A DNA stretch of 64,000 bases, taken from IMG/VR virus record IMGVR_UViG_2857349434_000001, positions 1 through 64,000 of that record; one strand, written 5' to 3'. Numbering within the stretch: position 1 is the stretch's first letter; each line of letters opens with the position of its first letter. The DNA comes from a virus (Duplodnaviria; Heunggongvirae; Uroviricota; Caudoviricetes). Below are positions 4,217-62,985 of the stretch, one piece after another. The position numbers were made by a program, and so were the translations under genes. The notes below the pieces were generated by a model, which was not told the DNA's origin, searched no databases, and saw nothing but the letters and a program-made list of their open reading frames with translations.

Positions 4217-4870
4217 TTAACCGACCTTTTCGAGGTCGTACTTCTCGGCGTAGTGGTCGGCCTTGTCCTTCGGATCGAAGTCCGGGTTGAACCAGATTGC
4301 GAAGAAGTCATCCTTCGCCAGGCCGGCGCCTTCCAGGTCGAGACCGTAGTGGTGGCTGAGGTTCCACTCGAACTGGCGCAGGTACTCGGCCTTTGCCCAG
4401 TCGCTGCCCAGGATCTCGTTGCGGGCCTTCCTCGGGTCCGGGAAGGCTTCTCCCGGCGTCACCGTGTTCACGATTGCCGGAATGATCTCCCAGTCATAGG
4501 CGCCGATCTCGCGGAACCACTCCGGCAGGAGGTCATAGACCTTCAGCACCCACTTGCCGATGTCGATGCTGTAATGGCGCAGCTCGACCGAGCCGACGCC
4601 TATCCGGTACGGGTGCCAGACCGGGTTTGGCTTGTCGGTAGCGACCGTGATCTCGCACAGGTACTCCCAGACGCACAGCGCCGCCTCCATCTCGAGGTGG
4701 CTATAGGCCTCGGGCAGATCCACGGCGATCTCCTGGCGGTAGACGCGAGCGCCGGCCTTGACCAGGTCCTCGGTCTTCGCCCTGGCATCCTTCTCGTCGA
4801 CGGCCAGTTCCCGGACGATGCCCGGCACCTCGTCGTGCTCGCCTTCGATGTAGAAGAGCTCAGCTCTCAT
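4217..4870 (-). CDS. hypothetical protein (217 aa)
   Basis: Start trimmed to Met15; ATGA-coupled to rtcB. Confidence 0.55.
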   Translation of the reverse strand: MRAELFYIEGEHDEVPGIVRELAVDEKDARAKTEDLVKAGARVYRQEIAVDLPEAYSHLEMEAALCVWEYLCEITVATDKPNPVWHPYRIGVGSVELRHYSIDIGKWVLKVYDLLPEWFREIGAYDWEIIPAIVNTVTPGEAFPDPRKARNEILGSDWAKAEYLRQFEWNLSHHYGLDLEGAGLAKDDFFAIWFNPDFDPKDKADHYAEKYDLEKVG

Positions 4871-6246
4871 TTCTTCTTCCTCTGCCAATGCATTTCGCCG
4901 GCCATGATGCAACCGTAGGGGTCGACGTAGTCGACGACCTCGGCCAGCCGGTGCTTATGGATCTGCCGCTGAACCTGCTCGGCGCTTTTGTAGGCGCTGG
5001 GCAGCTCGGACAGGTCCGGGGTGCCCAGGTAGAACCGAGCGTCAAGACCATTGGTCTCGCGCTGCAGGAGCTTGTCCGCGTCGTAGAACATGGTCGCGGT
5101 CTTCATGTACGCCGTCCGGCTCAGGTTCCGGCCGGCGCCGTGGGGCGAGAAGCCCAGGGCTTCGTCCTTGTCGGCGTGCCGGGTGACCATGATCGGCTCG
5201 GCCATGTTCATCGGGATCAGGGTCCGGCCGTCGTCGTCAGGCGAGAAGCCGGCGAAGGATGGTGTGGCGCCCTTGGCGTGGTAGAAGAGGCCGTCGTCGC
5301 GCCGGAACACGAAGTTATGCTCGTTCCAGAACCGATCGACCACGGAGTTGCCGATGCGCTGCTGGATGCGGTCGTGGAGGACGAAGTGGTTCAGCTTCGT
5401 CCACTCGCGGACCAGCTGGAGCGCCTCCCAGTAATCCTGGCCCGCCTCGGTGTCGGCGTCGATCCAGGCGGCCTGGGGGTCGGTCCTGGGCGACACGATC
5501 GCCGTGTGCTTCTTGGCCGCGGCCAGGCCTCGCTTGTAGACGAGCGCGCCGAGGCCACGGGAGCCGTGGTGGGTCACGATCGCCGGCTGGCCGGTCGAGC
5601 GCAGCGTGCCGACGAACAGGAAGTGGTTGCCGTCGCCCTGCGTGCCTAGATTGGTCTCGGCGATGTCACCGTATTTCGTCTGGCGGTCCTGGGTGAAGCG
5701 GTTGTAGTCGAGGTTGGCGCGGAGCGGCATGGGCAAGGCGAAGCCTTGCTTGCGCCCGCCCGGGCCGAAGTGCGTCACCTCCTGGGCGACGTCGAGGATC
5801 TTCTTCAGATCGTCGATGCGCTTGAAGACGGTGATCGCCATCGAGCAGCACACGTCAGCCGAATGGAAACCAGGGTGGATGGCGTTCTTGGTCGCCACCA
5901 CGCCGCCCACCGGGATGATCCCGGCGGGGCAGGCGTCGGGCATGACGACGGCCTTCTCAACGGTCGGCACCCGCACCAGCTTGTCCATGGCCTCGACGAC
6001 CAGGTCGAGGTTCTTCTGCTCGACGTCGTTCTCGGGTTCGAGGAAGACGTTGAACGGGAGGGAGTTGGTACGGAGCGGGATCTCGGGCGGCGCCGGAGGC
6101 AGGAGAGTGCCCACGGTGGCCCGAATGGCATCCTCGTCGCTACCGGACTCCGACATGAGGTTGGCGATCTCGATAGCTTCGCCGAACGACCTTCCTCGGC
6201 CTTTGGGGTCGAAGCCCCAGTCGATCAGCGTCTTGCCGGTGATCAT
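4867..6246 (-). CDS. rtcB: RtcB-family RNA 3'-phosphate ligase
   Basis: Motifs ADVCCSM (cf. DIGCGM), GDGNHF, HHGSRGLG and SPHGAGRN (cf. NHAGAGR); about 459 aa; GAAGGAA RBS. Confidence 0.85.
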   Translation of the reverse strand: MITGKTLIDWGFDPKGRGRSFGEAIEIANLMSESGSDEDAIRATVGTLLPPAPPEIPLRTNSLPFNVFLEPENDVEQKNLDLVVEAMDKLVRVPTVEKAVVMPDACPAGIIPVGGVVATKNAIHPGFHSADVCCSMAITVFKRIDDLKKILDVAQEVTHFGPGGRKQGFALPMPLRANLDYNRFTQDRQTKYGDIAETNLGTQGDGNHFLFVGTLRSTGQPAIVTHHGSRGLGALVYKRGLAAAKKHTAIVSPRTDPQAAWIDADTEAGQDYWEALQLVREWTKLNHFVLHDRIQQRIGNSVVDRFWNEHNFVFRRDDGLFYHAKGATPSFAGFSPDDDGRTLIPMNMAEPIMVTRHADKDEALGFSPHGAGRNLSRTAYMKTATMFYDADKLLQRETNGLDARFYLGTPDLSELPSAYKSAEQVQRQIHKHRLAEVVDYVDPYGCIMAGEMHWQRKKK

Positions 6247-8117: not shown

Positions 8118-8474
8118 TCAATTCTCCTCGTCGAAATCTTCCTTGGTGACGTAGCGGCCGAGCCGGAGACGGCCCTTGGCGTCGGGGCGGATGAAGAAGC
8201 CGGCTTGGGCCAGCTCGGGGCCGAGCTCATTCAGACCACGGAGCAACTCGGCGGCGCGGCCGGGGAGCGACTGACGGCGCTCGTTGCGCCGGAGGTTGAT
8301 CTGCACCTCCTGGATCTCGCGCCAGGTCTTGGCGCCGGCGTGTCGGAAGAACATCACCTCGGGCTTGGTCAGCTGCAGGAAGCGGTCGATCGTCGTGATG
8401 CCGTAGCGGCGCAGCACGTTTCCGGTGCGCACGCTCAGCTCCAGATCGTCGACCGGGCTATGCGGCGACTGCAT
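8118..8474 (-). CDS. RNA polymerase alpha-subunit C-terminal-domain (alpha-CTD)-like helix-hairpin-helix protein
   Basis: LELSVRTGNVLRRYGITTIDRFLQLTKPEVM...GAKTWREIQEV parallels the RpoA alpha-CTD LELSVRSANCLK..G..T..DL...E.ELL...NLG.KS..EI. Confidence 0.55.
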   Translation of the reverse strand: MQSPHSPVDDLELSVRTGNVLRRYGITTIDRFLQLTKPEVMFFRHAGAKTWREIQEVQINLRRNERRQSLPGRAAELLRGLNELGPELAQAGFFIRPDAKGRLRLGRYVTKEDFDEEN

Positions 8475-9424: not shown

Positions 9425-9659
9425 GAGGTGGTTTTCTCCAAAGGTGTCTGTTCGAACCAAAAAGGTCGGCGTGCGCCAGGTCGTGTCCTCGGTGGAGGTC
9501 GCGGCGGAGCATCTGCTTCAGTGGGAGAAGCGGGGACCGAAATGGCGGAAGGCAGTTGAAATGTGTTTGGCCGCGATTGAGGGTAAGGTTGAGCCCGACG
9601 ATGTGGGCAAAGCCTTCAAAGCCGCGGCCGAGGAGTCGGGGATGTTGGAAGAGGATTGA
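9423..9659 (+). CDS. hypothetical protein (78 aa) upstream of the DNA ligase
   Basis: GAGGA RBS; stop overlaps the ligase start. Confidence 0.45.
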   Translation: MRWFSPKVSVRTKKVGVRQVVSSVEVAAEHLLQWEKRGPKWRKAVEMCLAAIEGKVEPDDVGKAFKAAAEESGMLEED

Positions 9660-10270
9660 TGCAGACCGAGCGGCTAAAGTTCATCAAGCCCATGAAGCCT
9701 CTGCTCGTGCGGGAGCCGCCAGTGAGCGACGACTGGCTGCACGAGATCAAATATGACGGCTTCCGGGTTCAGCTGATCCTCGACTGGGCCGGCGCTCGTG
9801 CCTTCACGAGGAACGAGCACGACTGGTCGCGGCGGTTCTGGCCGGTGGTCGACGCGGCCGAGAAGCTGAAGGCCAAGTCGTTCATCCTCGACGGCGAGAT
9901 GATCGCCCCTGAGCCTGACGGGCGGCCGAACTTCCTGCAGATGCATTCCCGCATGGCGTGGAATGCCGAACTGCTGGCCTATGTCGCCTTCGACATCCTG
10001 TATCTGGACGGCGAGGATCTTCGCGCCGTGCCCCTGATTGAGCGCAAGGCCAAGCTCTGGCAGCTGGTGAAGCCGGCGACCGGGATCATCCAGTATTCCC
10101 AGCACGTCGAGGGCGGCGGCGCAGATTTCTACGAGGCCGCCCAGCGGATGGGGCTGGAGGGGATCGTCTCGAAGCGTCGGGAGAGCCCCTACAAGAGCGG
10201 GGCGACCGACGCCTGGGTCAAGACGAAGTCGCCGAACTATCTCCGGCGCGAGCGGAAGCGAGCCGCTTAG
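9656..10270 (+). CDS. minimal ATP-dependent DNA ligase (nucleotidyltransferase domain only, 204 aa)
   Basis: Motif I IKYDGFRV (KxDGxR), motif III FILDGEMI, motif IV EGIVSK, motif V WVKTK; no OB domain. Confidence 0.75.
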   Translation: MMQTERLKFIKPMKPLLVREPPVSDDWLHEIKYDGFRVQLILDWAGARAFTRNEHDWSRRFWPVVDAAEKLKAKSFILDGEMIAPEPDGRPNFLQMHSRMAWNAELLAYVAFDILYLDGEDLRAVPLIERKAKLWQLVKPATGIIQYSQHVEGGGADFYEAAQRMGLEGIVSKRRESPYKSGATDAWVKTKSPNYLRRERKRAA

Positions 10271-17351: not shown

Positions 17352-17395
17352 ACAAAAAGGCCCTCGCCGGTGGGCGAGGGCCTTGGGGTGCTTCA
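17352..17395 (-). terminator. rho-independent terminator (minus strand)
   Basis: Minus-strand transcript AAGGCCCUCGCC-CACC-GGCGAGGGCC followed by UUUUUGUUU. Confidence 0.6.
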
Positions 17396-19195: not shown

Positions 19196-19400
19196 GGGTG
19201 CTCATGTAGGCAGACGGAATAAGGCTAGCAGTAGGAGTGTCACTTCCCCAGAACAAATATTTTTAAATTACTCTAGTACTAAGTTTTGTACGTGTGTCCT
19301 GAGTTAAACTTATTCCGCTAGCCTTATTCCTCCTAATGCGATGGGGAAGAGGAAAAGAAAATAGTACTTAATATAAGGGGAAGACGCCCTAGCAAAATCA
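19196..19400. promoter_or_regulatory. AT-rich (about 38% GC) regulatory island with a 14-bp inverted repeat GGAATAAGGCTAGC (19207-19220 / 19308-19321), three GGAATAAG octamers and the motif TCCCCAGAACAA
   Basis: Read directly; sharp compositional contrast with the surroundings; lies upstream of the minus-strand operon that starts at 19195. Confidence 0.5.
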
Positions 19401-19423
19401 AGGCCTTAGTCCCAGTTCCTCAC

Positions 19424-19576
19424 CTAGTGCTTGATGTCGACGACTTCGAGCACTCTCCCGGCTGGCCGGCGAACCCTGGCCTCGTCGAGGAAACGGATGG
19501 CTTCGAGCCGGTTTCGCTCTATGGCTTCGAGCCGCTGCTCGACCTTGGCCGGCAGGTAATAGGGGTGCTGCATCAT
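19424..19576 (-). CDS. small hypothetical protein (50 aa) MMQHPYYLPAKVEQRLEAIERNRLEAIRFLDEARVRRPAGRVLEVVDIKH
   Basis: GAGGAGG RBS 6 nt upstream; preferred over the Arg/Ala-rich 117-aa track ORF 19398..19751. Confidence 0.45.
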   Translation of the reverse strand: MMQHPYYLPAKVEQRLEAIERNRLEAIRFLDEARVRRPAGRVLEVVDIKH

Positions 19577-19604
19577 GTCGGTCCTCCTCGAATTTGGGCC
19601 AAAT

Positions 19605-19617
19605 CTTACGCCGTAAG
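19605..19617. promoter_or_regulatory. 13-bp palindrome CTTACGcCGTAAG upstream of the 50-aa gene
   Basis: Read directly, about 30 nt upstream of the start codon on the minus strand. Confidence 0.4.
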
Positions 19618-19773
19618 GCTAAGAGCCCGGCGATGTGAGCGCGCGGCGAAAATTCTTGGTGGAGCGCCGAGTTGGCCCGCGCCTGCGCCACCTCCACCCC
19701 AACTCCAAACTCACTTCCACACGCTGACGCTGTACCAGCGGCTAGCCACAACCATAACTAGGCGCAGGCGCAC

Positions 19774-19980
19774 TCACTCACTGGGGACGCACACGATCTC
19801 GCGCCACCCCTTCGGGATGTGGCCCTCGGCTGCCTTCCACGCGGCCACGCAGTCGGCGCCGGCCGCCACAACCTGGCCGTCGACCACGAGCGCATAGAGC
19901 CCCTGTGGCTGCGGGTGTTGCGGCGAGATCCAGTTGACGAGCGCGGCCAGCGCGCTGCCGGCGATGGCAATGCGGATCAT
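19774..19980 (-). CDS. hypothetical protein (68 aa)
   Basis: Trimmed to Met16. Confidence 0.45.
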   Translation of the reverse strand: MIRIAIAGSALAALVNWISPQHPQPQGLYALVVDGQVVAAGADCVAAWKAAEGHIPKGWREIVCVPSE

Positions 19981-20417
19981 TGGATTTCCCCTTCGAAAAA
20001 GACACGCAGATCGGAGAGCTCGCACCCTTGCGATCGGGCGAGCTTCTCGGCTTCGACTTCACAGTGCAGGGCCGTGCCCTTCACCCGCGCCAGCACCTGG
20101 CCCGTGAGGCGATCCTCGATCAGGAACGCGGTCTCGACCCCACGCTGATCCTGCGGCGTGTACAGCCGCTTGGCGTTGCGTCGGACGGGGGCCTGGTGCT
20201 GGCGCGACGGGCGAGCGGATATGCGCTGAAGCGCCTCCCGCTCGTGAGCCGTGCATCCGCGGACGCGCTCCTTCGAGAGCGCGTTCCAGACGCGGTGCTC
20301 CGGCTCAGCCATGGAATGAGCCTGCGTAAAGCCATCCTCCCGCACGAGCACGACGTGCGCCAGACGCTGGCCAAGACGGGGTTTTTGCGTCAGGTCCGGG
20401 AGGACACGCATTCTCAT
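19977..20417 (-). CDS. hypothetical protein (146 aa)
   Basis: ATGA coupling. Confidence 0.5.
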   Translation of the reverse strand: MRMRVLPDLTQKPRLGQRLAHVVLVREDGFTQAHSMAEPEHRVWNALSKERVRGCTAHEREALQRISARPSRQHQAPVRRNAKRLYTPQDQRGVETAFLIEDRLTGQVLARVKGTALHCEVEAEKLARSQGCELSDLRVFFEGEIQ

Positions 20418-20534
20418 TCTCCATGAATTTTTTGGGCCGTAGTGGGCGCGCTAATTGATTGATTGCGCGCGCCTTATGCGCGGACGCGCATGAGGGAGGC
20501 CCGCCCCACGAGGGGGCGGGGTGGGAAGGGGCTG

Positions 20535-21260
20535 TTAGGCCGCCTTCCTCTTCGCTTCGCCCTCGGCCTTGGCCTTGGCGAGCTCTGCCGCCGGGTCGAA
20601 GTCGACCTTGCCGTCGCCCTTGGCCTCGGCGCTGGCCTTGGCGGCCATGGCCAGCTGGATGTGGCCATTCAGCCATTCGGCGAATTGCATGGCCTGCTCC
20701 AGAGTGAGCGCGCTTGCCGCGTGCTTCAGCCCGACCAGCGGATCAACCGGGTTAAGCTCGGCCTCCCGCTTGGCCTTCTCCTCGGCCTCCGCCTCGGCCT
20801 TGGCCTTCTCCTCGGCTTCCGCCTTGGCCTTGGCCTCCGCTTCGGCCTTGGCCTCCGCTTCCGCCTTGGCCTCCGCCTCATCCACAACCGGCTTCACCGG
20901 CAGGTGGCAGAGCTCTTCATAGTCCTTCATGTTGGACACTTCGAGCGCCAGCTTGTGCGCCTCCAGACATTCAGAGGCGAACTTGATGGCCTCATCCAAG
21001 TCCAAGGTCTTCGCGTGCTCCCGCTTCTCCAGCGGGAAGCCTTCCGCATAGGACTTCGTGGCGATCCGCCATGCGTTGCGGAAGGTGGAAGTCGGCGCGG
21101 CCTGTCCGAAGACCTTGGCCTCCAGCGCCTTGCGCGCCGTCGCTCCAGAGGAGCGGCCCATCGCCAGCCAGCAACAGCTGACATAGTAGCCGCCATGCGT
21201 TTTCGTTTCGAGGTCGACCATGCGGCCGACAATGCCGTTCAACGTGTAGCCCGTTGCCAT
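20535..21260 (-). CDS. hypothetical protein (241 aa) with a central EAKA low-complexity repeat linker
   Basis: Trimmed to Met38: GC3 drops sharply upstream, GGAGAG RBS, and the palindromic operators would otherwise fall inside the coding region; the AEAKAEAEAK.. block is encoded by an 18-nt tandem repeat at about 20760-20880. Confidence 0.55.
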   Translation of the reverse strand: MATGYTLNGIVGRMVDLETKTHGGYYVSCCWLAMGRSSGATARKALEAKVFGQAAPTSTFRNAWRIATKSYAEGFPLEKREHAKTLDLDEAIKFASECLEAHKLALEVSNMKDYEELCHLPVKPVVDEAEAKAEAEAKAEAEAKAKAEAEEKAKAEAEAEEKAKREAELNPVDPLVGLKHAASALTLEQAMQFAEWLNGHIQLAMAAKASAEAKGDGKVDFDPAAELAKAKAEGEAKRKAA

Positions 21261-21273
21261 TTCGCTCTCCGTT

Positions 21274-21289
21274 TTGCTCAATTGAGCAA
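21274..21289. promoter_or_regulatory. perfect 16-bp palindrome TTGCTCAATTGAGCAA (operator candidate 1)
   Basis: Read directly, 14 nt upstream of the ATG at 21260. Confidence 0.6.
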
Positions 21290-21339
21290 GTTGTTGATCA
21301 GGCGCATCTTCCCCGTCCCTTGCCCTTCCGGGCTTGGCC

Positions 21340-21355
21340 TTGCTCGATTGAGCAA
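21340..21355. promoter_or_regulatory. 16-bp near-palindrome TTGCTCGATTGAGCAA (operator candidate 2)
   Basis: Read directly; one mismatch to site 1; 50 bp between the two sites. Confidence 0.55.
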
Positions 21356-21584
21356 CTTTCGGTTCGGACATGGCTCCGCCTCGGCCTCCCGAGGGAGGCC
21401 TCGCGGGGGAGCCCCGCCATCAGCAGCAACTCACTGCCGATAACTAAGAATAACCCACCATATCCCCAGAACAATGGAAGGGGTACACGATATTCCTAGG
21501 ATTTCCTTGGCTCGACGCCGGGAATGGACCGACATATACTGCAAAAAATTTTTCGGATTTTTGAGTAATATTACTCCAAACAGA

Positions 21585-21610
21585 AAGGGCGCCCCGAAGA
21601 GCGCCCTTTC
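21585..21610 (-). terminator. rho-independent terminator (minus strand) after the gene at 21689..21916
   Basis: AAAGGGCGC-N8-GCGCCCUUU followed by UUCUGUUUGG on the minus strand; same stem family as the 2405..2437 terminator. Confidence 0.55.
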
Positions 21611-21688
21611 ATCTCGCGTCTTCTTGACCAAAACCCTAGTCCGAACCCGGGGCAGCGGTCAAACGCGTTACTATAGGATAAGTGGATT

Positions 21689-21916
21689 TTAGTTCACGGA
21701 GGCCCTCGGCGGCGAAACCAGCTCCGGCAGGATGTCCTGAACGACGCTGCTCATGGCGTGGAGGATGATCTTCCCCTCCTTCTCACCATAGTGGTCGGCC
21801 AGCAGCATGCCCGCCACCTGGAGCAGACGCGCCGCCCGGTTCTCGACGGTGACCTGATCGGCCCAGGTGCTAGTCAGCTCCTCGACCGCGTGTTGAAATT
21901 GCTGAACTGCCTGCAT
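21689..21916 (-). CDS. hypothetical protein (75 aa)
   Basis: Trimmed to Met18. Confidence 0.45.
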   Translation of the reverse strand: MQAVQQFQHAVEELTSTWADQVTVENRAARLLQVAGMLLADHYGEKEGKIILHAMSSVVQDILPELVSPPRASVN

Positions 21917-22146
21917 CAATGTGTTCCTTTCGGTATGTTGGGCATGCGGGCATGCAGATCCGCACACGTCTTTTTCATCAGCTCCATCGCCTGGTCCTGG
22001 GCCATCGTCTCCAGCAGAAACTCGGCCACCACCTGCAGGGTGACCTCGGCAATCTGCTTGATGGCCACCCCAGCCTGGCGCGCGATGTCCATGTGATCGG
22101 CCACCGCGTCCACCAGCAGATCCAGGTCGTCCTGGTGCTCACTCAT
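21916..22146 (-). CDS. hypothetical protein (76 aa)
   Basis: Trimmed to Met14. Confidence 0.45.
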   Translation of the reverse strand: MSEHQDDLDLLVDAVADHMDIARQAGVAIKQIAEVTLQVVAEFLLETMAQDQAMELMKKTCADLHARMPNIPKGTH

Positions 22147-22194
22147 AGGAGGTCCATTTCTCGTATTCCCACCACTCGTCAGCATCGACAGTTA

Positions 22195-39339: not shown

Positions 39340-39788
39340 TGAGCTACATGAATGTCTGGACGTCCATCGCGGCCTACATCAACCAGCAGATCCAGATGAT
39401 CGCGGCCAACGGCATCGCGCCGGCCAACATGCTTCAGATGTTCGACTGGGAGGCGCATGCCAACATCGAGGAGGCACCAGCCCTACACCTGATCGGGCCG
39501 GCCTCATTGGCGCTCGACGAGGTCACGGACGGGATCTACAGCGCGACCTTCGTGATCGGCGTCGGCTCGTTCAATGATGAGGGGTTGTTCGTCCACCGCA
39601 GGATGGTGGACCACCTTTTCAAATCCCTGAAGACAGGAACGCGGCTATCGGTTTTCGACAGTCAGAGCGAGCAACCGTACAGCTGGCTCAAAATCGTTGA
39701 TGGAACCGCGGTCGCGCCGATGACCAAGGCCAATACGCGAGCGCTGCAATTCATTCAGGCCGAGGCGTTGGTAGATCCGATGGCGTAG
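39339..39788 (+). CDS. hypothetical protein (149 aa)
   Basis: ATGA coupling. Confidence 0.45.
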   Translation: MSYMNVWTSIAAYINQQIQMIAANGIAPANMLQMFDWEAHANIEEAPALHLIGPASLALDEVTDGIYSATFVIGVGSFNDEGLFVHRRMVDHLFKSLKTGTRLSVFDSQSEQPYSWLKIVDGTAVAPMTKANTRALQFIQAEALVDPMA

Positions 39789-39946
39789 TGCGCCTGGAGG
39801 ATAGCCCGGTTGGTCTCGTCTTCCTGGGCGAGAGCCGTCTCAACAAGAACGACGATCTCAGCCGACAAGGAGCGCCGGAGGAAGGTAGCACGGCGCTCCA
39901 AGATCTCCTTCAAGTCGTCGTCCACGTTCAGAGTAATCCGCTTCAT
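39755..39946 (-). CDS. ribbon-helix-helix (Arc/MetJ/CopG-like) DNA-binding protein, 63 aa, antisense to the late operon
   Basis: Trimmed to Met27; MKRITLNVDDDLKEILERRATFLRRSLSAEIVVLVETAL gives a beta-strand then two helices typical of RHH; overlaps the 3' end of 39339..39788. Confidence 0.55.
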   Translation of the reverse strand: MKRITLNVDDDLKEILERRATFLRRSLSAEIVVLVETALAQEDETNRAILQAHYAIGSTNASA

Positions 39947-56496: not shown

Positions 56497-56673
56497 ATGA
56501 AGCGCAACAAAGGCATCATCGCCTATGGCACCGACGAGGACCGCGCCAAGCTCGCGGTGCTCTCCACCCTGACTGGCAAAACAGCGTCCGACTGGATCGT
56601 CCAGGAGATCCGCCGGCAGTATGCCACAGCCTTCGGTGACACGCCCCCAGAACGCATCATAGCGCAGCACTAG
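56497..56673 (+). CDS. small RHH-like protein (58 aa), absent from the ORF track
   Basis: MKRNKGIIAYGTDEDRAKLAVLSTLTGKTASDWIVQEIRRQY gives a beta-strand plus two helices. Confidence 0.45.
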   Translation: MKRNKGIIAYGTDEDRAKLAVLSTLTGKTASDWIVQEIRRQYATAFGDTPPERIIAQH

Positions 56674-59108: not shown

Positions 59109-61520
59109 TCACTTGTTGAAGTCGACCGGACACGCCCCGCTCTCGCAGTCGATGTGGACCTTGTCCACGTCCTCCGCCATCTGTTCAGCGATCGAGGCGA
59201 CAATCGCCTCATAGCGCGCCTTGGTGACAGGTTCCTCCGGCTGATACTCGTAGGACAGGGCGTCGACCTTCGGCAGCACCGACACGGCGCGCACCGTGTT
59301 GATGTTGGCATCCATGACCTTCGAGTATTCCTTGTAGCTCACCTTCTTGGGATCGTACTTCAGCGTGTAGGAGACCTGGTTGCCACCCTCACGGCCGATC
59401 CAGAACGTCTCCAGGAGCCTGAGCCAGCGGAACTGCTCCTCCATCGTCGCCTCGGACGCCGTGACGACCTCCGGCATGCCCAGCTGGCAGATCACCTGGG
59501 AGGTGGGGAAGCCGACGATCGTGGTGCCGGCGTAGCTCTGCAGCTCCTTGGTCGGATAGCCCTTGGCGGCGTATTCGGCCACCAGTGGGTCGTCAGAGCG
59601 GAACTGGACCCAGCGGAGGTACTCGCGCATGGGAGGCAGGTGAGCGCCCTCGGTGAGGCCGAAGAGCTTGCTGGTCGTGCCGGCCGGCTTGATGGTCCGG
59701 CGGGTGTGCGGGAACACGACGCCGAGATCCCGGCTGTAGCTGCTGGCCTCTTCGTCGACCACGCCGGCGAGCTCCTTCAGGCGGAGCCAGAAGGGCAGGG
59801 CGCGCGCGGCCGGCATCGGCATGAAGTTGCCGTTGGCGTCCTGCACCTGGTGGCCGTCACCGTCGATGGAGATCAGATCCCGGAAGGTGAGGCCGAAGCG
59901 CGCCCAGGCCCACTCCAGGATGCCCGTCAGGGACACCCCGATGCGGTTCGTGCGCTTGACCTCCCGGTCGTACATCGAGGACATGAGGTTGGTGCGGATC
60001 AGAGCGCGGGTGATATGGCGTGTGGCCTGTTCCTCTTCCCAGCTGTCGTTGGCGTGGAAGAGCGCCAGGTCGCCGATCACGCAGAAGGCGCCCAGGATGT
60101 AGAGCACGATCTCGCCGCAGGGGTTCACGATGAACTGGTAGACGTGATCCATGACCAGCTCGGCCATGGCGATCTGCATCTCGCGGAAGTCCTCGCCGCC
60201 GAACTTGGCGTAGGGGTAGACCAGGTAGTCGTCGGTGCCTTTGCGGTTGACGCTCAGCTTGGAGACGTTGAGGAAGCCGGTCTCGCCGGTGAGATCGTGG
60301 TACTGGCGGCGCTTCATGGCCTCGTTCAGATCGTGTGCCCACTTCTCCAGGCCGGTGAGCTCGATGCCGTTGCGCAGCATGTGCTTGGCACGGCGGAGGC
60401 ACTCGTAGAACTCGTCGTCGACCGCGACCGAGTTGTTCGAGGACCAGAGGAACGAGCCGTACTGCGGGAGGCCGGCCATGCTGTCGACCTCTTCCCAGCT
60501 GCGGCCGATGAACTCGATCGGGCGCTTGAGGTCGATGAAGGCGAAGATGCCGGGGTCTTTCCAGTATTTGGTCGCGATGCGCGCAGCGCGACGGGCGCCG
60601 CCCACCAGGACGCATTCGGCCAGATAGTGGTCGGCGTACATCGCCGCTGCCCATTTCGGCATGTCGAGGCCGCGTAGGCGAGCCACATTGGCGATCGCGC
60701 CCATGAGCGGGCCGGGGCCGGAGGCCGGGCGGTTCTGCATGCCCTTGATCGGCTCGCCGAAGCCGCGGACCTTGCTGAAGTCGAGGATGAGGAAGTGGTC
60801 GGTCAGGCCCTTGTAGGTGGCGACCTCGATCTCCTCCACGGCCTTGGCCCAGCCCTCACGGCTGTCGTCCACCATGTGGTAGATAGTCTTCTGGCCGGCG
60901 TGGAGGTGCATGGCCTCGCGCGGCGTCATGTAGCCGGAGATCCGACCAGACAGCACGTCAGGGTGGGTGTTGTCGATCACGCAGACCACGCGCGGCTGGA
61001 TCGTCCAGTCGACGAGCATCAGGGCGTCGTCGTAGCTCGAGCCCACGCCGGAGCCGGAGAGCAGCAGCTGGAAGGCCATGGCGCGGAACATCGCCGTCGA
61101 GCAGTTGGTGAAGACCTCCATCGGGCGGTCCTTCTGGCGGATGTCGCCGTGCTGAAGATGGCGGCCGGAGAGCAGGATGGTGCCCTCGGCGATGTGGTAG
61201 CGGAGGCCGTCCAGGTCGTAGCAGTGCGGGTGGAGAGAGGTGTTGCCCTCGGCCACGCGCAGAGCGACGTCGGCCCAGGTCTCGCGCCGCGTCTCCGGCT
61301 TACGGCCCATGAACGGTACGGTCTTGTCGTCGACGATCTTGATCAGGGGGAAGGTAAGGCTTAGTGCGGACCACCACGACTTGTAGTCGGGGTCGGCGGG
61401 GTTAAGAGAGACGGAGCGCGCGCCTGCCCATTCGGTCTTCGCTTCGTCGGTGAGGATCAGGCGAGAAACGGTGCGCTCGGCGACACCCTGGCCCATCCCC
61501 GGAAAGAAATCTCGGGACAT
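59109..61520 (-). CDS. ribonucleotide reductase, probably class II (adenosylcobalamin-dependent NrdJ-like)
   Basis: 803 aa; thiyl-radical loop NPCGEI; C-terminal CESGAC pair. Confidence 0.7.
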   Translation of the reverse strand: MSRDFFPGMGQGVAERTVSRLILTDEAKTEWAGARSVSLNPADPDYKSWWSALSLTFPLIKIVDDKTVPFMGRKPETRRETWADVALRVAEGNTSLHPHCYDLDGLRYHIAEGTILLSGRHLQHGDIRQKDRPMEVFTNCSTAMFRAMAFQLLLSGSGVGSSYDDALMLVDWTIQPRVVCVIDNTHPDVLSGRISGYMTPREAMHLHAGQKTIYHMVDDSREGWAKAVEEIEVATYKGLTDHFLILDFSKVRGFGEPIKGMQNRPASGPGPLMGAIANVARLRGLDMPKWAAAMYADHYLAECVLVGGARRAARIATKYWKDPGIFAFIDLKRPIEFIGRSWEEVDSMAGLPQYGSFLWSSNNSVAVDDEFYECLRRAKHMLRNGIELTGLEKWAHDLNEAMKRRQYHDLTGETGFLNVSKLSVNRKGTDDYLVYPYAKFGGEDFREMQIAMAELVMDHVYQFIVNPCGEIVLYILGAFCVIGDLALFHANDSWEEEQATRHITRALIRTNLMSSMYDREVKRTNRIGVSLTGILEWAWARFGLTFRDLISIDGDGHQVQDANGNFMPMPAARALPFWLRLKELAGVVDEEASSYSRDLGVVFPHTRRTIKPAGTTSKLFGLTEGAHLPPMREYLRWVQFRSDDPLVAEYAAKGYPTKELQSYAGTTIVGFPTSQVICQLGMPEVVTASEATMEEQFRWLRLLETFWIGREGGNQVSYTLKYDPKKVSYKEYSKVMDANINTVRAVSVLPKVDALSYEYQPEEPVTKARYEAIVASIAEQMAEDVDKVHIDCESGACPVDFNK

Positions 61521-62172: not shown

Positions 62173-62378
62173 TCGAAACCTCGTCTGATGAGCGCGGCGA
62201 CCACGACGCCTGTCCAGGCACCGGCGCCAAGCGCGGGGATTTGCATGTCGAAGGGGGAGGGGAAGGTGAGCCACAGGCCGTACGCGATGACGCCGGCCAG
62301 TGGTGGCACCACGATCAGGCAGATGAGCGCCGTGATCGTGGTGAAGGTCTCGATGACCTTACGCACTGGGTGACTCAT
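62169..62378 (-). CDS. small membrane protein (69 aa)
   Basis: Trimmed to Met36; two hydrophobic helices. Confidence 0.45.
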   Translation of the reverse strand: MSHPVRKVIETFTTITALICLIVVPPLAGVIAYGLWLTFPSPFDMQIPALGAGAWTGVVVAALIRRGFE

Positions 62379-62985
62379 AGGGCCACGGTGGGAACCTGGT
62401 GCCCGGGTCCAGGAAGCCGTCCACGAGGGGGATCGGCGTGCCCACTTCAGCCGGGTTCGGTGGATAGCCTGGGAGGCTCTCACTCAGCTCTTCGAACTGA
62501 CCTGCGATGACCTCGTCATTGGCAAGGTTCCTGACCGTCTCCTCCGAGAGCTCGTCCAAGACGATGGTAGCCTTGAGCTCGGCCTGCTGGCGCTGCCGGA
62601 GACGCTCCTTGTGGACCGCCTTCAGACGCTCGACCCATTCCTCGCCCTGGTGGAGGAGATCGGCCTCGACCTGGGACTTGCGCCGGTTGTCGATCAGCGT
62701 GCCGTGGGCGGCTGCGTCGATCAGGATCGAGCAGCACGCCTTGACGGCGCCGAGGTTCTTGACGAACGTGTCGCGGGTCAGCTCCTCGCCGACCTTGTAG
62801 AGCTGCAGGTGGCGCATGGCCGCCTCGACGTACGTCATGGCCTCGACCATGGTGTCCCGCCAGTTGTGCGGGTCGTACTTCAGCATCCCGTCGTAGAGGG
62901 CCTCCAGCTCTGCCAGCTGGGCGGAGAGCGGGATGTAGGCCAGCGGGGGCTTCTTGTCGCCGAAGGCTTGCTTGGGATTAGACAT
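62359..62985 (-). CDS. hypothetical protein (208 aa)
   Basis: Track ORF; reasonable composition. Confidence 0.5.
   Translation of the reverse strand: MSNPKQAFGDKKPPLAYIPLSAQLAELEALYDGMLKYDPHNWRDTMVEAMTYVEAAMRHLQLYKVGEELTRDTFVKNLGAVKACCSILIDAAAHGTLIDNRRKSQVEADLLHQGEEWVERLKAVHKERLRQRQQAELKATIVLDELSEETVRNLANDEVIAGQFEELSESLPGYPPNPAEVGTPIPLVDGFLDPGTRFPPWPYESPSA

Follow-up and report, generated by a model that had tools for sequence, protein, structure and literature searches.

The 64,000-nt stretch that makes up positions 1 to 64,000 of IMG/VR virus record IMGVR_UViG_2857349434_000001, from a phage of the Caudoviricetes (the window hereafter), carries two long palindromes just upstream of a minus-strand gene encoding a 241-amino-acid (aa) orphan protein, and the question raised by this locus is what recognises these dyads and at which step of gene expression they act. 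A first-pass annotation had described them as two 16-bp palindromes 50 bp apart, forming an operator pair for a dimeric repressor. They were present as claimed, the proximal copy at 21274-21289 (TTGCTCAATTGAGCAA on the plus strand) being a perfect 16-bp palindrome and the distal copy at 21340-21355 (TTGCTCGATTGAGCAA on the plus strand, TTGCTCAATCGAGCAA when read on the gene strand) carrying one mismatch, with a gap of 50 bp between them (66 bp centre to centre). These were the only two matches at three or fewer mismatches in the window, where 0.13 were expected (1 of 100 shuffles gave two), and the whole window holds three perfect 16-bp palindromes. The operator-pair idea survived our analysis in modified form, with the sites placed in a predicted transcribed leader and coupled to pause-like motifs; the mechanism by which they would act is a proposal, set out below.

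Whether the dyads are coding depends on where the gene starts. The longest open reading frame (ORF) on the minus strand (21371..20535, 278 aa) includes a 37-codon extension ahead of Met38, in which the GC content of third codon positions (GC3) was 0.51, compared to 0.85 in the gene body. This extension is open and in frame in this window only, the upstream ATG of the relatives being out of frame or stopped, and all homologue N-termini read M(A/T/S)GYTL, equivalent to Met38, whose ATG (21260) has GGAG 6 nt ahead of it. These data supported the earlier proposal that Met38 is the true start and that the 278-aa ORF is spurious, and both palindromes are therefore non-coding, as had also been stated. 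The further claim that the proximal site overlaps the ribosome-binding site (RBS) and start region did not hold, as the edge of this dyad at 21274 lies 3 nt from the Shine-Dalgarno sequence GGAG (21270..21267), without overlap, and ahead of the ATG (21260..21258). An origin of the palindromes as chance matches or as a coding repeat (LAQLSK/VAQSSK) was rejected, given the GC3 of 0.51 and an extension that no relative has both open and in frame, and a conserved upstream ORF or leader peptide was likewise rejected, as frames were not kept among relatives.

Relatives of the locus were collected by protein similarity, a route unbiased for palindromes, from Mesorhizobium genomes, an alphaproteobacterial metagenome-assembled genome (MAG), IMG/VR contigs and metagenomes; 12 of the 13 distinct close loci were obtained in this way and one was added by a DNA-pattern search. 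Both palindromes were found in all 13 (two copies, of this dyad type, 61-68 bp apart), bearing out the prediction that homologues would keep them. The intergenic region was more conserved than the flanking genes, with the last ~200 nt before the ATG nearly invariant at 60% protein identity; across these phages identity was 45-61% for the 241-aa protein, 82-84% for the PrimPol, 85% for the large terminase (TerL) and 70-77% for the next gene. Over ~30 sites the arms TGCTC/GAGCA were fixed with the exception of one base (L021_B), and variation was limited to the 4-bp centre (AATT, AATC, AAAT, GATT, AGTT) and the outermost position, which is usually a C-A mismatch on the RNA strand. Invariant arms around a tolerant, A/T-rich centre are as expected for a dimer reading two half-sites. 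Sites of CcrM, CtrA, LexA or NtrC type did not fit by inspection, and a full-text literature search for the dyad sequence found no paper.

The dyads are thus non-random, conserved and fit recognition by a symmetric dimer, and to this extent the operator-pair claim stood; the part of it that placed the sites at a promoter did not. The only conserved promoter lies at 21474..21447, upstream of both dyads (the distal and proximal copies being about 92 and 158 nt downstream of it), and the dyads therefore fall inside the transcribed leader. This promoter, P1, is predicted to be of sigma70 type, with a start near 21441, from the pattern YYGTT(C/G)-N16-TAnnnT, which was found at the same position in 12/12 loci reaching far enough upstream, with the hexamers kept and the spacer sequence varying. 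A simple consensus promoter scan does not list P1, presumably because its -35 hexamer is weak. The upstream promoter element GTGTACCCCTT and the -35 taken together occur once in the window, against a chance expectation of 0.07. Along the gene strand, a small upstream gene ends in its stop codon and is followed by a terminator, a 14-bp palindrome, an AT-rich block, a variable stretch, the upstream promoter element, P1 and a leader of 186 nt, and a strong terminator 4 kb downstream (17384..17357) probably closes the operon.

Within the leader there are two tandem copies of a module (hairpin, motif ACGGGGAAGGTGYGYC and dyad). Alignment of each palindrome with its 45 upstream bases, which was gap-free over 35 modules from 19 loci, gave a module consisting of a GC hairpin, the motif A C G G G G R A G G T G Y G Y C at -27 to -12, 8 variable bases followed by AAC, and the palindrome. 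The most invariant motif positions were G-25 (33/35), G-24 (35/35), G-19 (33/35), Y-15 (33/35), G-14 (33/35) and C-12 (31/35). The consensus elemental pause, as stated for E. coli, is G-11G-10 T-3G-2Y-1G+1 (PMC6062546; also PMC6336406). With the RNA 3' end placed at -15 of the module, G-25, G-24, Y-15 and G-14 correspond to G-11, G-10, Y-1 and G+1 of this consensus, and agreement over the 35 modules, position by position, was G 33/35, G 35/35, T 24/35, G 21/35, Y 33/35 and G 33/35. Relative to this predicted paused 3' end the palindrome would occupy +15 to +30. The copy of the motif ahead of the proximal dyad (motif B) has no other close match in the window. In one relative, L020, a third hairpin-motif-palindrome module (1270-1340) precedes the second gene of the operon, and its palindrome GTGCTCAAATGAGCAA supplies the ATG and first codons of that gene. 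A reading of the module motif as a sigma54 or extracytoplasmic function (ECF) promoter was rejected by inspection, the spacing and the -12/-10 elements being unfit.

Further from the window, the type of dyad changed with the protein. In L027 (P0013) and L029 (P0014), at 35-40% identity to the window protein, both copies of the two modules carry TGCTG-N4-CAGCA, a symmetric C-to-G swap, while single modules were found in L028 (P0008, 46% identity; TGCTCAATTGAGCA), L030 (P0020, 28%; TTCTGA-TTT-TCAGAA), L031 (P0018, 31%; CGCTAC-TGCG-GTAGCG) and L026 (P0016, 29%; TCCCC-TGC-GGGGA). Dyad copies within one locus were always of the same type. That a dyad is always present, is specific to the subfamily and agrees between copies indicates a sequence-specific trans-acting factor co-evolving with its sites, and symmetric arm swaps among relatives fit recognition of double-stranded DNA by a dimer. 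In L027 the surrounding gene order is rearranged and leader and gene are still linked. In Mesorhizobium sp. LHD-90 (L006 6677-7345, matching window 21587-20907) the part shared runs from the AT-rich block through the region encoding the N-terminal domain (N-domain) of the protein and, as sharing is limited to the cassette and the N-domain, the cassette therefore moves as a unit between unrelated backgrounds. A short protein-level match (50% over 70 aa) was also seen between L006 7776-7985 and window 1665-1456, at the low-GC left end of the window.

The co-evolving factor could in principle be a host protein, with the dyads serving as operators for a Mesorhizobium transcription factor recruited to time or condition the operon. 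The named type-I loci come from Mesorhizobium or from an unclassified alphaproteobacterial MAG, the L006 cassette stands in an otherwise unrelated background of the same genus, and no phage-encoded DNA-binding repressor was detected among the ~50 ORFs scanned. However, the dyad type (TGCTC versus TGCTG) shifts with the protein subfamily among closely similar cassettes, no matching regulon motif is known to us, and the literature search for the sequence gave nothing, so that we consider a host factor improbable.

The protein itself is organised as a basic, all-helical N-domain (about residues 1-120), an acidic Glu/Ala/Lys-rich helical linker and a short C-terminal helical segment, and its AlphaFold model had a pLDDT of 85.7 overall and above 90 over most of residues 30-120, the N-domain again being all-helical. 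The N-domain was basic in 21/24 family members and the linker strongly acidic. A helix, TSTFRNAWRIA, was invariant in seven aligned type-I proteins except for one W-to-Y change (L010), and this region differed in proteins of other dyad types. The linkage of cassette and gene, a helix that varies by dyad type and the failure to detect a repressor make autoregulation the most economical guess, in which the 241-aa product would bind its own dyads. The protein ended in Ala-Ala in 22/24 aligned family members; such an ending resembles the ClpXP recognition tag of ssrA-tagged proteins and of CtrA, and suggests that the protein may be unstable. Searches of Pfam, PHROGs and NCBIfam gave no match for the 241-aa protein or the 24 family members, the family numbered only 31 cluster representatives in an exhaustive profile search, tblastn queries of the window protein and of P0016 revealed no cultured phage carrying the gene, and megablast of 6 kb returned nothing. 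The protein diverges fast and its acidic, Glu/Ala-rich linker varies in length next to a nearly invariant leader, a combination that would also suit an early protein engaged in host interaction or anti-defence.

We tentatively favour, with a confidence a little short of even, the reading that the dyads serve, as double-stranded DNA, to bind a phage-specified dimer (perhaps the gene's own product) that would block or capture elongating RNA polymerase. Transcription from P1 (TTGTTC-N16-TATTCT, start near 21441) would run into the 186-nt structured leader, where RNA polymerase may pause at the consensus-pause-like motif of each module, with a dyad-bound dimer sitting 15 nt beyond the predicted paused 3' end, directly ahead of the polymerase. 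The bound protein would then either block elongation as a roadblock, shutting the early operon, or engage the paused polymerase, and the proximal site, 3 nt from the Shine-Dalgarno sequence, may also affect translation. An unstable autoregulator with an Ala-Ala tag would be expected to give a short pulse of expression. Roadblock operators such as lac O2, the cre sites of CcpA and CodY sites within transcription units are dimer-bound dyads far downstream of their promoters that stop polymerase, and the leader shares with them dyad-symmetric sites well downstream of a promoter. It differs in that its sites are tandem-duplicated, each being kept in fixed register with a pause-like motif and an RNA hairpin, and in that binding is here a prediction; to our knowledge no described roadblock has this tandem hairpin-pause-dyad arrangement. 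The invariant G-11, G-10, Y-1 and G+1 and the upstream RNA hairpin also recall a hairpin-stabilised (his-type) pause.

Several observations weigh against this reading. It is unusual for operators to lie 90-160 nt downstream of a start site, and a dyad spacing of 61-68 bp makes strict helical phasing for looping unlikely. The pause consensus is that of E. coli and not an alphaproteobacterial one, and the 3' bases of the module hairpins lie 13-18 nt before the predicted pause 3' end, not at about 11 nt as in a his-type pause (the his pause hairpin lies ~10-12 nt from the paused 3' end). The N-domain of the window protein is itself neutral (pI 6.9), and a structural search of the N-domain fold against PDB and BFVD gave no match and no known DNA-binding fold. 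Finally, the dyads adjoin the RBS and the third copy in L020 holds a start codon, a placement like that of an RNA translational operator, and in the most distant relatives the GC-rich dyads, with their UGCG or UGC centres, resemble ordinary RNA hairpins.

The last of these points lead to a second explanation, in which the dyads would act as leader RNA hairpins bound by a phage-specific RNA-binding protein in a nut-like manner, with the conserved upstream motif as linear partner element, giving processive antitermination of the operon and/or translational autorepression, the latter in view of the mere 3 nt between the end of the proximal hairpin and the Shine-Dalgarno sequence. It is consistent with sites that are transcribed and fold as RNA at about -7 kcal/mol each, with the strong terminator 4 kb downstream, with the start codon of gene 2 inside the hairpin of the third L020 module and with the GC-rich UGCG or UGC loop hairpins that stand in place of the dyads in distant relatives. 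As at lambda nutL/N, an early promoter is followed by a leader with a linear element and a phage-specific hairpin, the hairpin copies being alike, and then by the first gene; a linear motif at a fixed distance 5' of a phage-specific hairpin, identical in both copies, follows the logic of boxA/boxB, and the regulated gene comes first after the promoter, as N does after nutL. Lambda N is an unstable regulator that is translationally autorepressed.

To the same explanation belongs the finding that other elements of the leader are clearly RNA structures. Covariation was assessed on 10 leaders by an RNAalifold run and an explicit pair count over five specified helices (hairpins H0, H1 and H2 and the two dyads), which together gave a covariation score of 0.207 compared to 0.106 in shuffles (0/500 reached it), with sliding controls far lower. 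Pairing in H1 was kept despite replacement of its sequence in L004, L005, L009 and L006, with 3/6 pairs changed on both sides. The GC hairpin noted upstream in the first-pass annotation (21383-21400) is thus real, and is not the isolated element described but one of several co-varying RNA hairpins in the leader. In each dyad, by contrast, 5/6 arm pairs were unvarying in these leaders. The compensatory changes of H0 and H1 set against the fixed dyad arms indicate that evolution has kept RNA structure in the ordinary hairpins but sequence in the dyad arms.

This pattern counts against RNA recognition of the dyads, since over ~30 sites the loop varies and the stem is fixed, the reverse of boxB-N or of the MS2 operator, and at the outermost pair the RNA strand usually has a C-A mismatch. 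The protein's N-terminus (MATGYTLNGIVGRMVDLE) is not arginine-rich, unlike that expected of an N-like protein with an arginine-rich motif, and the protein has a folded N-domain and is twice the size of N. Unlike boxA, the motif comes after a hairpin and fits a pause signal. Kissing-loop pairing between the two dyad hairpins was rejected, as loop variants were non-complementary. Rfam covariance models gave only sub-threshold, terminator-like matches and no RNA family for the leader, which even on a conservative reading is a well-defined new cis-regulatory element absent from Rfam. Overall we judged recognition of DNA about twice as probable as recognition of RNA, and regard the RNA-hairpin explanation as fairly unlikely.

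The gene had also been proposed to resemble the immI region of P22, with a ribbon-helix-helix (RHH) repressor of Mnt/Arc type, encoded elsewhere in the phage, binding paired operators at the promoter of a gene for an antirepressor or a toxic product. A dedicated pair of like dyads ahead of a single, specially regulated phage gene is a feature in common with immI, and a fast-evolving product with a likely degradation tag would suit a potent regulator. Of the candidate binders named, neither RHH gene (39755-39946 and 56497-56673) has a Pfam match, the Fis-like ORF gave only a sub-threshold HTH_8 match, and no RHH match was found in the neighbouring ORFs at 21689-21967, 21916-22185, 19977-20417 and 19774-20025. 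No regulator gene adjoins the sites. Unlike P22 immI, the locus therefore lacks RHH genes nearby, its sites do not overlap a promoter, and its product has no Ant, KilA, Bro or other known domain. A classical repressor encoded by the phage was rejected more broadly, as the ~50 ORFs scanned (which included a ligase, RtcB, NUDIX, SPFH, a class II ribonucleotide reductase, a MazZ-like hydrolase, a PrimPol-helicase and a protein like the RNA polymerase alpha subunit's C-terminal domain, alpha-CTD) yielded only the sub-threshold HTH_8 match and the alpha-CTD-like protein. The genome moreover resembles siphophages Seuss and JWF. The immI-like model is largely refuted on the features tested, and we regard it as very improbable.

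The relationship to these siphophages bears on a further possibility, that the dyads are genome-end DNA sites for a packaging protein (small-terminase-like) or for a replication initiator near a terminal-repeat boundary. Lambda offers comparisons for both, in the R sites of cosB that lie before Nu1 and in the dyad-symmetric iterons of ori that are bound by the unstable O protein. Relatives of the PrimPol-helicase were found in Achromobacter phage JWF, Caulobacter phage Seuss, Xylophilus phage Lumi and a group of Acinetobacter phages, all of ~80-85 kb; the link to Seuss and JWF, the closest cultured relatives and both siphophages, is via the primase only. In Seuss, the gene order is the same, with an opposite-strand large terminase, a small gene, a PrimPol-type primase, a small gene and a terminator, and the upstream order of AT-rich block with dyad, GGTGTACTCCTT, TATTCT, dyad-bearing leader and gene is also the same. 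The corresponding Seuss gene product, gp3 (CPT_Seuss3, 223 aa, hypothetical), resembles the family in its start (..YTGRAISAVATQVTGLE..), its Pro/Glu/Ala linker and its KAA end, and differs in that its homology to the family is non-significant (hhalign E = 0.058). The Seuss dyads are also different (TTGTCGCGCGACAA and GAGAGC-N6-GCTCTC), with a module motif that can be recognised only in part. In Seuss (L033 6340-6470) tandem repeats with CCCGCGAGCGGG hairpins fill the space from the terminator to the AT-rich block; these overlap the annotated gp4, which may therefore be spurious.

The Seuss record has a terminal repeat of 1,748 bp whose inner boundary lies between the AT-rich block and GGTGTACTCCTT, which puts promoter, leader and gp3 within the repeat. 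That the positional orthologue lies with its leader in a terminal repeat, with the boundary next to the GTGTACTCCTT element, favours a genome-end role. The paper on the Seuss genome covers replication, rII and lysis genes as well as the terminal repeat, mentions no lysogeny genes and annotates no small terminase. This leaves the description of the window as a prophage uncertain, with the Seuss genome paper speaking against it and the occurrence of one homologous locus inside a 699-kb bacterial contig speaking for it. In four Mesorhizobium relatives (L002, L003, L005 and L007) contigs end independently 0-40 nt past the homologous gene's stop codon, either within a GC hairpin or just beyond it, the end of L002 being a fold-back copy of that hairpin, which suggests a physical DNA end or a repeat boundary after the gene. 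In the window the sign of the GC skew changes at 19.2-19.7 kb, where GC falls to 56%, without a change of gene strand (all genes are on the minus strand from 10.4 to 25.2 kb), and 19200-19700 could be a genome terminus, a replication landmark or a mosaic joint; as this sign change is 1.5-2 kb away, a replication origin at the dyads was rejected on the basis of GC skew.

A genome-end role would further suit the PrimPol-helicase gene that neighbours the gene in most loci, the lack of an annotated small terminase in Seuss and the layout of the protein (N-terminal domain, long helix and C-terminal segment), which is typical of small terminases and initiators. Yet the putative boundary is 150-220 bp away from the dyads, which lie inside it, the number of copies ranges from one to three among relatives, and the pause-like register, the co-varying hairpins and the adjacent RBS point to expression control. 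The mapped terminal repeat is that of Seuss; its counterpart in the window is predicted to extend from about 21.5 kb to either about 20.5 kb or about 19.5 kb. The homology of Seuss gp3 to the family is weak. We therefore consider a packaging or replication role for the dyads quite unlikely. If the Seuss layout holds here, P1 would be the outermost promoter of one genome end and the gene among the first expressed.

A more specific form of the roadblock reading, speculative and on balance unlikely, is that the cassette is a modular elongation checkpoint at which a short-lived phage protein, placed ahead of a programmed pause, captures or releases the host RNA polymerase. Were this so, the first promoter by the terminal repeat of a Seuss-like genome would gate early transcription, and phage-specific (immunity-like) control would act at elongation, not initiation. 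Neither the element nor the protein family is described in Rfam, Pfam, PHROGs or NCBIfam. If the favoured model is true, they would form a compact, portable cassette, present in tandem ahead of an early orphan gene, that links programmed pausing of the polymerase to a protein bound sequence-specifically to DNA, and the model would give a function to an unannotated protein family of poorly studied phages (Seuss, JWF and Mesorhizobium phages). Proteins and sites of matched specificity (TGCTC, TGCTG and others) would then be available as a natural set, and the model would offer a handle on how terminally redundant siphophages start and shut off their first transcription unit.

Features of the locus in the order in which they are met on the gene (minus) strand, with window coordinates.
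Feature	Coordinates	Strand	Remarks
Intrinsic terminator closing the upstream PrimPol-helicase transcription unit	21584..21610	-	Fold -27.2 kcal/mol, z = -4.55
Second dyad GAGTAATATTACTC, perfect 14-bp palindrome	21563..21576		Directly after the terminator; conserved in relatives
AT-rich block, A5T6 tract then AGTATATGTCGGTCCATTCCCGG	21518..21560		Kept down to relatives with 29% protein identity
Upstream promoter element GTGTACCCCTT	21478..21488	-	Adjoins the -35 on its 5' side; found in all loci, Seuss (GGTGTACTCCTT) among them
Predicted sigma70-type promoter P1	21447..21474	-	-35 TTGTTC 21474..21469, N16, -10 TATTCT 21452..21447; hexamer conservation
5'-terminal leader hairpin H0	21416..21444	-	-17.1 kcal/mol, z = -4.16; 3/6 pairs compensatory across 10 leaders
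GC hairpin H1, GGCCTCCC-GA-GGGAGGCC	21383..21400	-	Core of a longer stem-loop, 21372-21413
Motif A AGGCGGAGCCATGTCC, diverged copy	21367..21382	-	In register 27..12 nt ahead of the distal dyad; predicted pause at 21370; holds the false ATG of the 278-aa ORF
Distal dyad	21340..21355		5/6 arm pairs unvarying
Small hairpin H2 of module B, GCCC-GGAA-GGGC	21322..21333	-	Kept despite indels; loops GGAA, GAAG, GAGA, AGA
Motif B ACGGGGAAGATGCGCC	21301..21316	-	Fits the extended consensus pause; predicted RNA 3' end 21304
Proximal dyad	21274..21289		Perfect palindrome; 5/6 arm pairs unvarying
Shine-Dalgarno sequence and true start codon	21258..21270	-	GGAG 21270..21267, ATG 21260..21258; AAACGGAGAG-N-ATG conserved, proteins of relatives start here
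Gene for the 241-aa orphan protein	20535..21260	-	No family or structural match
GC hairpin	20500..20521	-	13 nt after the stop codon; contigs of 4 relatives end here

The region upstream of P1 agreed with its earlier description. The AT-rich island at 21440-21585 had 40% GC, compared to 62% for the window, and the terminator placed at 21585-21610 was recovered as a hairpin at 21584-21610 (z = -4.55) with a T-rich tail. This tail, UUUCUGUUU, is T-rich on the gene (minus) strand in all relatives, and in L006, L026 and L030 a different stem followed by a T tail stands at the same position. As the hairpin is flanked by runs of A and of T, it could act in both directions. In the 14-bp palindrome that follows, symmetric substitutions were seen in Seuss (AGTGATATCACT) and L031 (ACTGATATCAGT), and it may therefore be a separate protein-binding site. 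On the plus strand a -10-like TATACT (21535-21540), read as TATACT, CATACT, TATTCT or TTTACT in relatives, faces the two-way terminator hairpin (region 21535-21612); it could direct an RNA of ~70 nt away from the gene, or its conservation may reflect the terminal-repeat boundary.

Elsewhere in the window, RtcB is encoded at 4867-6246 (minus strand) and an ATP-dependent DNA ligase at 9656-10270 (plus strand), with a class II ribonucleotide reductase at 59109-61520 (minus strand). A gene at 62359-62985 (minus strand) encodes a MazZ-like dATP/dGTP diphosphohydrolase N-domain, which raises the question of modified (2-aminoadenine) DNA. The alpha-CTD-like protein mentioned above is the product of a 118-aa ORF at 8118-8474 (minus strand), which matched the RNA polymerase alpha-subunit C-terminal domain (PF03118, E = 3.9e-11) and gave partial rpoA matches in NCBIfam, and it could interfere with UP-element- or activator-dependent transcription.

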